DNA from: Escherichia coli
GTDB lineage: Bacteria > Pseudomonadota > Gammaproteobacteria > Enterobacterales > Enterobacteriaceae
Reading direction: 5' to 3' (one strand)
Assembly (NCBI RefSeq): GCF_003334315.1
Contig: NZ_QOWR01000039.1
DNA: 44,728 bases
Part shown: piece by piece, positions 1 to 8,814 of the stretch
Layout: every line of letters begins with the position of its first letter
Position numbering within the stretch: position 1 is the first letter of the stretch
Program-made: the position numbers and the translations under genes
Notes under the pieces: generated by a model
Databases searched by the model: none
What the model was told of the DNA's origin: nothing
The model's input: the letters and a program-made list of their open reading frames with translations, nothing else

Positions 1-61
1 ACTGATGGAGATGGAAGCCACGGGAGCACCTCAAAAACACCATCATACACTAAATCAGTAA
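1..61 (+). CDS. 3' end of an upstream O-antigen cluster gene (partial, product unknown)
   Basis: Reading frame open from the window edge to TAA at 59-61; low-GC context typical of O-antigen clusters. Confidence 0.3.
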   Translation, partial: LMEMEATGAPQKHHHTLNQ

Positions 62-62
62 G

Positions 63-527
63 TTGGCACCATTACCTTCATGGGGATGGGCAACATGGCA
101 AGATAGGTGGGAGTCTATTCAATGGGAGGGTGATATATATAAAGATTATTTAGAAAACGAAAGCATGCAGAAGCAATTCATGAAATATTCAGGTGTCGAT
201 ATTGACCGAATGCTTAAAAAACAATTGGCAGGGCATATTGATTCGTGGGCAGTAAGATTTGTCTTTAATTGTTTTTTACAGAAAAAATTAGCTTCATACC
301 CGACTAAATCGTATATTACAAATATCGGTTCTGATGGGACAGGTACGCATCGGGGAGTTAATGAAGAATATATAGTGAATTACTCCTTAAATATTAATCT
401 GCCAACAAATTTGCTAAATGATCTATATGTAGATAAGGATATTTGGAAGCAGTTTAATTTATTTGTTAGGAAAAAATATTTTTTTCGGAGGGCTTTACTG
501 TTTATAAGAAGGAAATTTTATGCTTAA
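63..527 (+). CDS. hypothetical O-antigen cluster protein (154-aa ORF; start uncertain, TTG in ORF track, internal ATG possible)
   Basis: ORF track; no recognisable motif; could also be the out-of-frame continuation of the upstream gene. Confidence 0.3.
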   Translation: MAPLPSWGWATWQDRWESIQWEGDIYKDYLENESMQKQFMKYSGVDIDRMLKKQLAGHIDSWAVRFVFNCFLQKKLASYPTKSYITNIGSDGTGTHRGVNEEYIVNYSLNINLPTNLLNDLYVDKDIWKQFNLFVRKKYFFRRALLFIRRKFYA

Positions 528-1631
528 AAAGCTATTAAAGAAGTTTTTCATTCGTTATGCGTATAAATCATTTAACAAAAGCGGTTCGAAAAAGGCATTA
601 TTATCATTTATCGTCCACCCCTATTTTTTCAAAACATTTAAGCATCCGAATATAATTGAGTTAGAATGTATAGTTTCTATTTTAGAAAAGATGGGTTACT
701 GTATTACGGTTGTAGATTATCGAAGAAAAAAAATTCATAAAAAATACGATTTAGTGTTGGGGTTTGGGGATTGCTTTGAATATGCTATAAATCATAACTA
801 TGGCACTAAGTTTATACTTTATTCAACAGGTTTTCCTGCTTTTATTCAAAACCAGAATGCTATCGAAGCATTTTTCCGTTTTAAACAAATGTACACTGAA
901 AAACAGAACATTGTATCTGATAAGTATATACGTTTAACTGAAAATGTTTGGCCCAGACAATTAATAGAAAGTGATGCTATTATCACTATAGGTAATGATT
1001 ATGTTAAATCATTATATGAACGATTTCACGATAAGATATATTGTATTCCATCTACAGCTTTTAAAATAATAACTCAGCAATCTACAACAATAAATTCTAT
1101 AAAAAAAATTCATTTTTGTGGTTTGGAGGGAAAGGGTGTATTCACAAGGGACTGGATTTATGTATAGCAGCAATAGCTGGCACAGAGTATAAGTTATACA
1201 TAGCAGGTCCTATAGACGATGAAATTTGTATTTTTAATGACATATTGAGTACTTATCCAGATAATTTTGAGTATCTTGGTTTTCTTTCTGTTAATACTGA
1301 AGAATTTTGCGAGGTAGTTGAGCATATCCCATTTTGTATATTGCCGTCATGTAGTGAAGCAATGGCTACCTCCATTGTGACGCTGGCTAGTAATTTCGGA
1401 ACGATTCCGTTAATTACAAAGGAATGTGGTTTTGACTTTGATAATGAAATCATAGAAATAAATTCATTAACTATTCAATCTGTTAAACAAGCATTATTTA
1501 AAGCGTCATTGTTGACTGAAGATGAAATTTATATTAGAAAATCTTCTATCAAAAGAAAATACAGTTCTTATCATAGCAATGAATCGTTTTACAGTAAATT
1601 TGAATATTCTCTAAAAGAAATACTTAGATAG
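520..1631 (+). pseudogene. glycosyltransferase (GT1/GT4-like) split into two ORFs by a -1 frameshift in an A8/T5 homopolymer region (~1101-1117)
   Basis: ORFs 520..1167 and 1116..1631 overlap; frame switch joins ...SIKKIHF to LWFGGKG..., restoring a ~385-aa GT-like protein. Confidence 0.5.
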
Positions 1632-6638: not shown

Positions 6639-7384
6639 TGCGAATTTCTATTATCACAGCTACTTATAATAGTGAAAAAACTCTCCTTGATACATTACTT
6701 TCTCTAGAAAAGCAAACGCATCCAGATATTGAATATATAGTTGTAGATGGAGCATCGAAAGATAATACAATTAAGCTGATTAAGAGTAATTGTACAAAAG
6801 TTTCAAAAATCATTTGCGAACCCGATAAGGGCATTTATGATGCTCTGAATAAAGGTATTCAAGCAGCTTCGGGTGATGTTATTGGTTTTTTACATTCTGA
6901 TGACTTATTTGCTTATGATGATGCTATTGCAGATATAGCAAAAACATTTGAAAGTACAGGATGTGATGCTATTTATGGCGATTTGGAGTATGTTGCCCAA
7001 AATGATACGACTAAACGTATTAGATTATGGAAAAGTGGTTCATTTAGTCGTTTCAAGATGAAAGTGGGTTGGATGCCGCCACACCCATCATTTTATATGA
7101 AACGCGAATGTTATAGTCAGTTTGGTAGTTTTTCTTTAGATTATCGAATATCTGCTGATTATGACTCATTATTACGATATATTTTAAAACAACGTATTTC
7201 GATAGCATATTTACCAAAAGTCTTAGTGAAGATGCGTGTTGGTGGAATTAGCAATCGTTCAGTATCTTCAATGGTCAAGAAGTCAATGGAAGACATTCGT
7301 ATTATGAAACAGAATGGTATTATCTGGCCACTTGCTTTAGCGTATAAAAATATATCCAAACTTCCTCAATTTATTAAAAAGTAA
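6638..7384 (+). CDS. glycosyltransferase family 2
   Basis: 248 aa, ISIITATYN...VVDGASKD GT-A signature. Confidence 0.8.
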   Translation: MRISIITATYNSEKTLLDTLLSLEKQTHPDIEYIVVDGASKDNTIKLIKSNCTKVSKIICEPDKGIYDALNKGIQAASGDVIGFLHSDDLFAYDDAIADIAKTFESTGCDAIYGDLEYVAQNDTTKRIRLWKSGSFSRFKMKVGWMPPHPSFYMKRECYSQFGSFSLDYRISADYDSLLRYILKQRISIAYLPKVLVKMRVGGISNRSVSSMVKKSMEDIRIMKQNGIIWPLALAYKNISKLPQFIKK

Positions 7385-7389
7385 TCATC

Positions 7390-8814
7390 ATGTTAAATGT
7401 TAAAAAAATCATTAACGATAGTAATATTGCGTTCGGTACTAGTGGTGCTCGCGGTTTAGTGATCGATTTTTCCCATGATGTTTGTGCTGCGTTCACTCAT
7501 GCGTTTCTTTCTGTTATTGATGACAAATACAATTTTAATAAAGTTGCCTTAGCCATTGATAACCGCCCAAGTAGTTACGAAATTGCTCAGGCATGCGCGT
7601 ATGCTATAAAACAACATGGATTCGAGGTTGAATATCATGGTGTAATTCCGACTCCTGCATTAGCTCATTATTCGATGCAGAAAAACATTCCCTGCATAAT
7701 GGTCACAGGGAGTCATATCCCTTTTGATCGTAATGGCTTAAAATTCTACAGACCTGATGGTGAAATCACTAAAGAGGATGAGCTCGCAATTATAAATAGT
7801 GAGTATACATTTTCGCCTGTAGGTGAATTACCTCATCTTGAAACAAGCACTCAAGGTGCAGACTACTACCTCGAGCGTTATGTTTCTCTTTTTAATCCCG
7901 AGATTTTAAAGGGGAAAAGAATAGGGGTATATGAACATTCTAGTGCGGGACGTGATTTATATGCTCCTCTTTTTAATCAAATGGGTGCAGAGGTCATTTC
8001 CCTCGGTAGGAGTGATGAGTTCGTTCCGATTGATACGGAAGCAGTAAGCGATGAAGATCGTATACTTGCAAGAGAGTGGTCTAAAAAATATAATCTTGAT
8101 GCTATTTTCTCAACAGATGGCGATGGTGATCGTCCTTTAGTTGCCGATGAAAATGGTGAATGGTTAAGAGGCGATATTCTGGGACTACTTACTGCTATTG
8201 AACTTAATATCAAGGCGTTGGCTATTCCAGTGAGTTGTAATACAGCAATTGAAGAGTCTAATAAATTTGCAAGTATACAACGAACGAAAATAGGTTCTCC
8301 TTATGTAATTGCAGCATTTGCAGATCTTGCTAAGCAATTTGATTCAGTCGCTGGTTTTGAAGCTAATGGTGGTTTTCTCCTTGCCTCCGATTTACAAATT
8401 AATGGCAAGGAATTAAAATCGTTACCTACACGAGATGCTGTGTTACCAGCATTAATGCTCTTAATAGCTTCTCGCAATAGTACTATTTCTCAACTGATTA
8501 ATAATCTTCCTCAGCGATTCACTTGGTCAGATAGAGTTAAAAACTTCCCTTCAGATTCAAGTCAACAAATTATAAAAAATGCCATATCGTCACCCAATAA
8601 TTTCTTTAATAGTTTAGGTTATGAATCATTATCCTGTTCCGCTATTGATGAAACGGATGGTGCAAGATTTACTTTAAATAATGGTGATATTATACATCTC
8701 CGTCCTTCCGGTAATGCTCCAGAACTCCGTTGTTATGCTGAGGCCAGTGATGAAAATCAGGCTAAGCAATATGTTACGAATGTGCTGGGAAATATTACCT
8801 CTTTGATTTCTTGA
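7390..8814 (+). CDS. manB: phosphomannomutase (alpha-D-phosphohexomutase family)
   Basis: 474 aa; active-site-like TGSHIPFDRNG and metal-binding DGDGDR motifs; position in GDP-fucose gene set. Confidence 0.75.
   Translation: MLNVKKIINDSNIAFGTSGARGLVIDFSHDVCAAFTHAFLSVIDDKYNFNKVALAIDNRPSSYEIAQACAYAIKQHGFEVEYHGVIPTPALAHYSMQKNIPCIMVTGSHIPFDRNGLKFYRPDGEITKEDELAIINSEYTFSPVGELPHLETSTQGADYYLERYVSLFNPEILKGKRIGVYEHSSAGRDLYAPLFNQMGAEVISLGRSDEFVPIDTEAVSDEDRILAREWSKKYNLDAIFSTDGDGDRPLVADENGEWLRGDILGLLTAIELNIKALAIPVSCNTAIEESNKFASIQRTKIGSPYVIAAFADLAKQFDSVAGFEANGGFLLASDLQINGKELKSLPTRDAVLPALMLLIASRNSTISQLINNLPQRFTWSDRVKNFPSDSSQQIIKNAISSPNNFFNSLGYESLSCSAIDETDGARFTLNNGDIIHLRPSGNAPELRCYAEASDENQAKQYVTNVLGNITSLIS

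Follow-up and report, generated by a model that had tools for sequence, protein, structure and literature searches.

Probable recent inactivation of a galF-gnd O-antigen gene cluster carrying GDP-L-fucose genes in Escherichia coli

Gene content and setting of the locus

The window analyzed here, meaning the whole stretch of 44,728 nucleotides of an Escherichia coli contig, opens inside the end of an IS1 element and continues with glycosyltransferase and sugar-nucleotide genes (Table 1). Downstream of the end of manB (8814) these are followed by gnd, ugd, wzzB, and hisIE-hisG, which is the setting expected of an O-antigen locus. The GC content was 37.1% between positions 77 and 8814, as compared to 50.4% in gnd and 50.6% between 9011 and 44651, and thus the low-GC segment that an earlier note on this DNA had placed upstream of gnd was confirmed. 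Broken down by gene class, GC amounted to 30-35% in the glycosyltransferase genes, 37-42% in the pathway genes, and 50.6% in the flank. This agrees with the rule that O-antigen clusters have a GC content below the genome average which is lowest in the glycosyltransferase genes (PMC7685785). The same note had assigned all of 1-8814 to the O-antigen cluster; the assignment holds for 77-8814 but not for bases 1-76, which are an IS1 end. Specifically, 77-8814 is the 3' 8.7 kb (the 3' two-thirds) of a Wzx/Wzy-dependent O-antigen gene cluster in the standard galF-gnd locus.

Neither wzx nor wzy was found on the contig, which begins inside IS1 at the cut first glycosyltransferase gene (GT#1). Likewise, the JUMPStart/ops element (GGCGGTAGNNT) gave no matches in the window. 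It gave one match in the intact cluster L001, at position 8608 in the gap between galF and wzx; this ops element upstream of wzx (GGCGGTAGCGT) is missing from the window.

Table 1. Features of the O-antigen locus and its flanks, in window coordinates.
Feature	Position	Strand	Details
IS1 end, terminal 76 bp with inverted repeat	1-76	-	Left contig boundary; cluster cut here
GT#1, 3' remnant (codons about 159-307)	77-527	+	Intact gene 924 bp, 307 aa
GT#2 pseudogene, putative divergent GT-B type	520-1631	+	Intact 370 aa; split into ORFs 520-1167 and 1116-1631
A8 run, GT#2 frameshift site	1101-1108	+	A9 in all intact alleles
GT#3 pseudogene, GT4-family	1642-2651	+	Intact 336 aa; split into ORFs 1642-2262 and 2295-2651
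G10 homopolymer	2247-2256	+	G11 in intact alleles; apparent recurrent slippage site
gmd	2669-3793	+	Intact; TIGR01472 587 bits (cut-off 415); 0 amino acid differences from L001
fcl, GDP-L-fucose synthase	3797-4762	+	Intact; NF047922 548.5 bits (cut-off 500)
gmm, GDP-mannose mannosyl hydrolase (NUDIX)	4765-5226	+	Intact; NF011963 205 bits (cut-off 146)
manC	5232-6638	+	Intact; TIGR01479 738.5 bits (cut-off 373)
GT2-family glycosyltransferase, wfeY position	6638-7384	+	Intact; GT2 family matches, Pfam PF00535
manB, putative phosphomannomutase of non-CpsG lineage	7390-8814	+	Intact; all four phosphohexomutase motifs
gnd	9011-10417	+	Conserved 3' flank of O-antigen locus; NF006765 773 bits; synteny with L001
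ugd	10666-11832		After gnd
wzzB	11979-12956		After ugd

That the O-antigen cluster encodes a GDP-L-fucose pathway, as had been proposed, was borne out, since gmd, fcl, gmm, and manC all scored above the curated cut-offs of NCBIfam equivalog models. Among NCBIfam equivalogs, no model passed its cut-off for manB, the best being archaeal GlmM (172 versus a cut-off of 439). The manB open reading frame contains the motifs GTSGARG, TGSHIP, DGDGDR, GFEANGG, and RPSGNAPE and shares 21% identity with the colanic-acid CpsG, in line with its earlier description as a GTSGARG/DGDGDR type rather than a CpsG-like one. Its closest solved relative is PDB 4hjh ('Phosphomannomutase', E 5.6e-109), and this match, the catalytic motifs, and the operon context favour a putative phosphomannomutase.

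Between manC and manB lies a GT2 gene in the position that wfeY occupies in wfeY-type modules, and the exact sequence of its protein was present on 746 contigs. Both the wfeY position and the role proposed for its product, an alpha-1,3-fucosyltransferase acting on GlcNAc-PP-undecaprenol, come from PMC10606467. By analogy, the product of 6638-7384 is proposed to catalyze this same reaction.

Lesions in the glycosyltransferase genes

Three glycosyltransferases had been counted in this segment. There are actually four such genes, three of which are disrupted (by IS1 at 76/77, at the A8 run, and at the G10 run), and the wfeY-position gene is the only one that is intact. Bases 14-76 are 95% identical to one end of the IS1A that is annotated in the related sequence L010, and matches of the cluster to its relatives all begin at base 77. 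This IS1 stretch is multicopy in E. coli, with thousands of matching places across genomes, and only one end lies in the window. Window base 77 corresponds to position 12001 of L001, within an intact GT#1 at 11528-12451. The catalytic Pfam domain Glycos_transf_2 of GT#1 spans residues 8-148, which is exactly the part lost, while the start of the open reading frame at 63-527 is a fortuitous TTG within IS1. The missing wzx, wzy, and 5' half of GT#1 either lie just past IS1, as in a simple insertion, or have been deleted. The proteins OWD59273/4 (Wzx and Wzy) are numbered near OWD57873/4 (from the contig of the window), which hints that they come from the same assembly. A search with the Wzy variant P0054 for a 5' cluster half from the same assembly returned only contigs from intact clusters.

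GT#2 carries a one-base deletion relative to L001, L003, L011, and L012, and adding one A back to the run yields an open reading frame of 370 aa. Direct searches with GT#2 gave no significant Pfam, PDB sequence, or NCBIfam match. A wider search retrieved homologues at 27-45% identity which carry PF00534 or PF13692, and through this transitive homology to GT1/GT4 proteins GT#2 is a putative glycosyltransferase.

In GT#3 the frameshift parts the two Rossmann-like domains. Putting one G back produces an open reading frame of 336 aa; the family matches of GT#3 are those of the intact protein. The intact G11 codes for V-G-G-G-D (GTG GGG GGG GGG GAT). It is the sole run of eight or more G/C in the window and about 336 kb of related loci, and three GGG codons in a row are unusual in this gene, which has 35% GC and uses GGG for 5 of its 33 other glycine codons. 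Tract lengths of G11, G10, and an in-frame G10+A were read from DNA. An in-frame G8 was deduced only from the protein P0029, and was judged unreliable as its source genome series has several other odd truncations. G10 arose separately in each of two subclades and also within a distinct lineage marked by a deletion, and from these sequences we infer at least three independent shortenings of G11 to G10.

Intact relatives and similar clusters

From base 77 on, the window matches intact clusters in the complete genomes of three E. coli strains, with the same gene order and an identity of 97.8-99.9%. Matching intact clusters were also found in many draft contigs. The intact order is galF-(ops)-wzx-wzy-GT#1-GT#2-GT#3-gmd-fcl-gmm-manC-GT2(wfeY position)-manB-gnd, and wzx and wzy are present in the intact L001, L011, L012, and L015-L021. 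These relatives very probably make a fucose-containing O-antigen. L020, which has an intact cluster with G11, equals the window over 6,421 bp save for the G tract. Since it differs at this single place over 6.4 kb, the decay in the window is recent. Loss of this O-antigen type has been repeated and followed different routes, namely IS1 insertion, a deletion from wzx to GT#2, and poly-G slippage.

The module from gmd to manB also occurs in other serogroups. A gmd-fcl-gmm-manC-wfeY-manB module has been described in O36, O41, O156, O159, O168, and the SD2019180 serogroup (PMC10606467). The window shares with these clusters the order of the six genes, a GT2 gene flanked by manC and manB, the location directly upstream of gnd, and the gene sizes (468, 248, and 472-474 aa). 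On the other hand, the 5' serotype-specific half of its type (wzx, wzy, and three glycosyltransferases) is a different set and, in the window itself, is truncated and frameshifted. In other E. coli clusters, of the H4 and H7 types, the 5' halves are different but the module shows about 99% identity to this one. The suggestion that the manB type may help serogroup assignment is therefore not upheld, as the module is exchanged in its entirety as a recombining cassette, whose junction lies where gmd begins.

A search by literature and protein names linked no named serogroup to the cluster. Among the matches listed, the Wzy of this type was confined to E. coli apart from a Citrobacter protein with 61% identity, and the database names (15 of 50 cluster members) all read 'hypothetical protein [Escherichia coli]'. 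A link to O62 was rejected because the cluster of O62 is of the ABC-transporter type and lies at another genomic site (PMC7685785). Outside E. coli, an intact O-antigen locus of Citrobacter (amalonaticus) (L022) has an identical gene order from wzx to manB and also lies upstream of gnd, with protein identities of 61-67% for the specific genes and 70-92% for the module genes. In its GT#3 orthologue the glycines are coded by GGT GGT GGT, so that the poly-G tract is not conserved.

Inactivation of the cluster and its alternatives

The best explanation for these observations, to which we assign a probability of roughly 0.85, is that an ordinary galF-gnd O-antigen cluster was recently inactivated by IS1 and two frameshifts. 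The polarity of IS1, the sequence of the biochemical steps, and the function of the enzyme at the wfeY position (PMC10606467) are inferred here. In an intact cluster, GDP-mannose would be made by ManB and ManC and converted to GDP-L-fucose by Gmd and Fcl, while Gmm would trim the GDP-mannose pool. WecA, encoded elsewhere, would prime undecaprenyl phosphate with GlcNAc-P; L-fucose would then be added by the wfeY-position enzyme, and three further transferases would finish a five-sugar unit, which would then be flipped by Wzx, polymerised by Wzy, and sized by WzzB. In the window, IS1 would both cut GT#1 and part the downstream genes from the promoter/ops region, wzx, and wzy, while one-base losses would have turned A9 into A8 in GT#2 and G11 into G10 in GT#3. 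The strain thus probably no longer makes this O-antigen, and its predicted phenotype would be rough or O-non-typeable. The very recent date of the decay explains why no damage has yet reached the sugar-nucleotide module or the wfeY-position gene. Leaky expression may occur if RNA polymerase or the ribosome slips on A8 or G10.

Inactivation of this kind is ordinary and already known. In K-12, the rfb-50 mutation is an IS5 insertion in wbbL, and Shigella sonnei reportedly carries a chromosomal O-antigen remnant. As in such rough or O-non-typeable strains of E. coli and Shigella, the window combines an IS with point frameshifts at galF-gnd and spares the sugar-nucleotide genes, although it differs from them in cluster type and in the IS involved. 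The S. sonnei chromosomal remnant itself was rejected as the identity of the window cluster, since the database names of the truncated and fused open reading frames are all E. coli.

The earlier note had envisaged an O-antigen containing fucose or a derivative, which would call for an intact, expressed cluster in which three glycosyltransferases function. In favour of this, neither the GDP-fucose genes nor the wfeY-position gene is damaged, and they are identical or near-identical to their counterparts in intact clusters. However, the window cluster is a remnant: IS1 cuts GT#1, wzx, wzy, and ops are missing from the contig, three of the four glycosyltransferases are inactivated, and both frameshifts were called relative to more than ten intact alleles. 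It does not follow from such a cluster that the O-antigen of the strain contains fucose, and we regard an intact cluster as hardly credible. Could both homopolymer differences instead be sequencing or assembly errors, leaving the IS1 junction as the only real lesion? Homopolymers of 8-11 bases are error-prone, their lengths can be mis-assembled, and the in-frame G8 allele of P0029, from a genome with several oddly truncated neighbours, may be such an error. Nevertheless, this is very improbable, as the A8 and G10 states recur in the independently assembled L004 (SRR1122540), L006 (an ENA metagenome assembly), L008, and L009, the same lesions are shared with L004 and L006, and G10 was found together with other real lesions.

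A third alternative concerns reversibility, that is, a phase-variation switch may reside in the G tract, perhaps together with the A tract, so that O-antigen production is in an OFF state and recoverable. The recurrence of G10 and the unusual row of GGG codons speak for such a switch, and in the capsule locus of E. coli a reversible inactivation by homopolymer (kpsC, A7/A6) and IS has been shown experimentally (PMC13410964). Yet three lesions including IS1 would require three events for reversion, and the presence of G10 in a lineage already dead by deletion fits mutational bias better than selection. GT#3 was full-length (336 aa) in 24 of 24 long contigs anchored on intact GT#2, OFF alleles make up a few percent of database copies (an estimate from contig counts), and the Citrobacter orthologue is devoid of the tract. 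Altogether, a reversible OFF state of this strain appears improbable, and recent inactivation remains the preferred reading.

Whether the tract switches in the O-type at large is a separate matter. Contingency loci in surface-glycan glycosyltransferases include the lgt poly-G tracts of Neisseria, the fut poly-C tracts of Helicobacter pylori, and the LOS genes of Campylobacter. To our knowledge, poly-G or poly-C switching is not normally credited to O-antigen clusters of E. coli. Like those loci, GT#3 has a long, glycine-coding G run inside a glycosyltransferase open reading frame, with length polymorphism among near-identical strains. In contrast to them, OFF is rare among database isolates; neither retention of the tract in orthologues nor common OFF alleles, as expected of a contingency locus, was found in Citrobacter and the 24 contigs. 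The G11 run, a hot spot of slippage, is a candidate phase switch, while the stronger proposal, by analogy with those loci, that it is a genuine contingency locus in which slipped-strand mispairing toggles an O-unit glycosyltransferase at high frequency, seems to us doubtful. If true, this O-type would gain reversible smooth/rough or altered-O-unit variation, as afforded by the switches of Neisseria, Campylobacter, and Helicobacter.

The practical value of the whole case is modest, and the G11 run is a candidate mutational switch. The strain should be predicted to be rough or O-non-typeable, but in silico serotypers could mistype it if they rely on the shared gmd-manB module or simply on cluster genes being present.

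Composition and gene content upstream of gnd

The segment upstream of gnd, which the earlier note had read as AT-rich, is indeed so: positions 77-8814 have 37.1% GC, versus 50.4% in gnd and 50.6% in the remaining contig, and their genes are close-packed, every one on the + strand. All matches to related O-antigen loci start at base 77. Since an IS1 end lies on the left and a multicopy repeat end on the right, the contig merely terminates at repeats on both sides; the right-hand repeat, presumably IS2-like, is present in 4,696 of 5,426 E. coli genomes. Elsewhere in the window, an island on the - strand (36863-43565) adjoins the CP4-44-like cbtA/cbeA-yeeS region. 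Its products are a patatin-like phospholipase, an RdcB-family protein, a GTPase and a dynamin-family protein of 798 aa, whose ORF (38832-41228) is intact in the window but carries an annotated internal stop in H26, the complete genome closest to it.

Surviving genes of the cluster and the two contig ends
Feature	Position	Strand	Remark
IS1 end	1-76		left contig end; 14-76 match the terminus of an annotated IS1A
gmd	2669-3793	+	intact; 587 bits vs curated NCBIfam cut-off 415
fcl	3797-4762	+	intact; 548.5 bits vs curated NCBIfam cut-off 500
gmm	4765-5226	+	intact; 205 bits vs curated NCBIfam cut-off 146
manC	5232-6638	+	intact; 738.5 bits vs curated NCBIfam cut-off 373
GT2-family glycosyltransferase, wfeY position	6638-7384	+	intact, between manC and manB
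manB	7390-8814	+	intact, 474 aa; PDB 4hjh match
Multicopy repeat end	44652-44728		right contig end; chromosomal matches stop at 44651

The homology of gmd and fcl, on which the earlier note had made its pathway depend, was confirmed by the curated cut-offs, which both exceed. Its description of manB as not CpsG-like also stood: the product shares just 21% identity with the colanic-acid CpsG from a related genome and retains the motifs GTSGARG, TGSHIP, DGDGDR, GFEANGG and RPSGNAPE. No NCBIfam equivalog model was passed in the NCBIfam search, the product matched PDB 4hjh, a structure named "phosphomannomutase" (E 5.6e-109), and the assignment of substrate specificity as a phosphomannomutase rests on context. 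At the exact position of the GT2-family gene, serogroups O36, O41, O156, O159, O168 and a new serogroup have in common the glycosyltransferase gene wfeY, which was given an alpha-L-Fuc-(1->3)-D-GlcNAc linkage (PMC10606467). Following that study, we infer that the product of 6638-7384 would take the same role and form the same linkage.

Lesions of the serotype-specific half

Intact forms of the cluster, seen in three complete E. coli genomes and many draft contigs, have the order galF, ops element, wzx, wzy, GT#1, GT#2, GT#3, gmd, fcl, gmm, manC, GT2, manB, gnd, where GT#1 (307 aa), GT#2 (370 aa) and GT#3 (336 aa, GT4 family) are the glycosyltransferases of the serotype-specific half. Both wzx and wzy are missing from the whole window, as is the ops element GGCGGTAGCGT, which occurs at position 8608 of the intact locus L001. 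GT#1 is severed by IS1 after about codon 158, and its Pfam GT2 catalytic domain (residues 8-148) lies wholly within the lost part; the annotated 154-aa ORF at 63-527 begins at a TTG inside IS1. In GT#2 the run at 1101-1108 is A8 versus A9 in four intact alleles, and in GT#3 the run at 2247-2256 is G10 versus G11 in intact alleles. With a single A and a single G put back, the two ORFs regain their full lengths of 370 and 336 aa, so these are the sole lesions of the two genes. Thus, instead of the three glycosyltransferases counted previously there are four genes, only one of which, at the wfeY position, is intact. GT#2 had no significant match in Pfam, PDB or NCBIfam; it is accepted as a putative divergent GT-B enzyme because homologues at 27-45% identity bear GT1/GT4 domains.

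Assembly error would be one explanation of these lesions, and it is argued against by the identical IS1 junction, A8 and G10 in two independently assembled loci, L004 (SRR1122540) and L006 (ENA metagenome assembly). The decay of the cluster is very recent, as the intact G11 locus L020, aligned with the window over 6,421 bases, differs from it by a single base in the G tract and nowhere else, and the six module proteins (gmd to manB) show 0-2 amino-acid differences from those of L001. The integrity of the pathway genes is therefore uninformative about selection. The close relative AHM9C68I, otherwise 99.8% identical to the window, carries an IS1A in yeeE (tsuA), which in the window is an intact 352-aa ORF (24753-25811); this shows that IS1 has been active independently among close relatives. 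Separately, one or two complete genomes (~4.7587 Mb, WP_4072xxxxx series) encode several oddly short cluster products (P0029, P0040, P0061 and P0078), one of them, P0029 (335 aa), being GT#3 with an in-frame G8 tract. These short forms may reflect homopolymer errors of long-read sequencing and not true biology.

The GT#3 run is the sole G/C run of at least 8 bases in the window and ~336 kb of related loci. As G11 it codes for VGGGD (GTG GGG GGG GGG GAT) in a 35% GC gene where, apart from the tract, GGG accounts for 5 of 33 Gly codons. In a SNP matrix over 6.4 kb the E. coli clusters formed two subclades, separated by 12-14 SNPs, and G10 was present in each; the window had its closest G11 neighbour at 0 SNPs, and the related locus L003 had its own at 2 SNPs. 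A third lineage (at least 21 contigs) has a wzx-through-GT#2 deletion ending at window base 1175, which fuses the wzx 5' end to the GT#2 3' part as a 216-aa hybrid ORF (L002 9340-9990, L007, L029-L031); G11 is the majority state in this lineage (L029, L031), with G10 in L002 and L007. Because G10 occurs in both subclades and the deletion lineage, G11 became G10 on at least three separate occasions, one of them within an already dead cluster. Such repeated shortening marks the tract as a mutational hot spot. A phase switch under selection is possible, and its nearest experimental parallel is the E. coli Group 3 capsule locus, with reversible A7/A6 slippage and an IS insertion (PMC13410964), but it is not supported: GT#3 is full-length in 24 of 24 long contigs anchored on intact GT#2, the 67% identical Citrobacter orthologue has GGT GGT GGT in place of the tract, and joint reversion of this strain's three lesions is not expected.

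The fucose module as a cassette, and the predicted phenotype

Identity to clusters with wholly different 5' halves (one with rmlBDAC, another with two acetyltransferases) starts at 2664-2691 and continues at 98.5-99.1% through manB into gnd. This boundary, at most a few bases from where gmd starts, marks a recombination junction of the gmd-manB cassette. Identical copies of the GT2 protein were found on 746 contigs and of ManB on 126, with related ManB in E. marmotae and E. albertii. Since differing O-antigen clusters have the module in common, the manB type is useless for serogrouping, for which it had been proposed as an aid. The Wzy of the intact cluster was found in E. coli (50 sequences) and in Citrobacter at 61% identity, and nowhere else. 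Among the matches listed, Wzx and Wzy were all named "hypothetical protein" or "flippase [Escherichia coli]", and no named serogroup was found via protein names or the literature searched. A Citrobacter locus (L022, 8466-20456, GCA_950098555.1) has the same order of eleven genes between galF and gnd, with protein identities of 61-67% for the specific genes and 70-92% for the fucose module, which suggests that the entire cluster has a common origin or was transferred between genera.

From the established pathway and previous studies (PMC7685785, PMC10606467), the intact form would make GDP-mannose by ManB and ManC and convert it to GDP-L-fucose via Gmd and Fcl, with Gmm moderating the pool. The unit would be started on undecaprenyl phosphate by WecA, receive fucose from the wfeY-position enzyme and be finished as a five-sugar unit by three further transferases, before Wzx export, Wzy polymerisation, WzzB sizing and WaaL ligation. 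In this strain those three transferases are dead, and a presumably polar IS parts the surviving genes from the RfaH-dependent promoter region. A Wzx/Wzy pair (OWD59273/4) has accessions numerically near the contig's own proteins (OWD57873/4), which hints that pair and window are in the same assembly. While the gene identifications of the earlier note largely held, its fucose-containing O-antigen did not, given that three of four transferases are broken and wzx, wzy and ops are absent from the contig. The locus is of an ordinary, already-known kind that has recently decayed, the recurrently slipping G11 run is its only mildly unusual element, and the predicted phenotype is rough or O-non-typeable.
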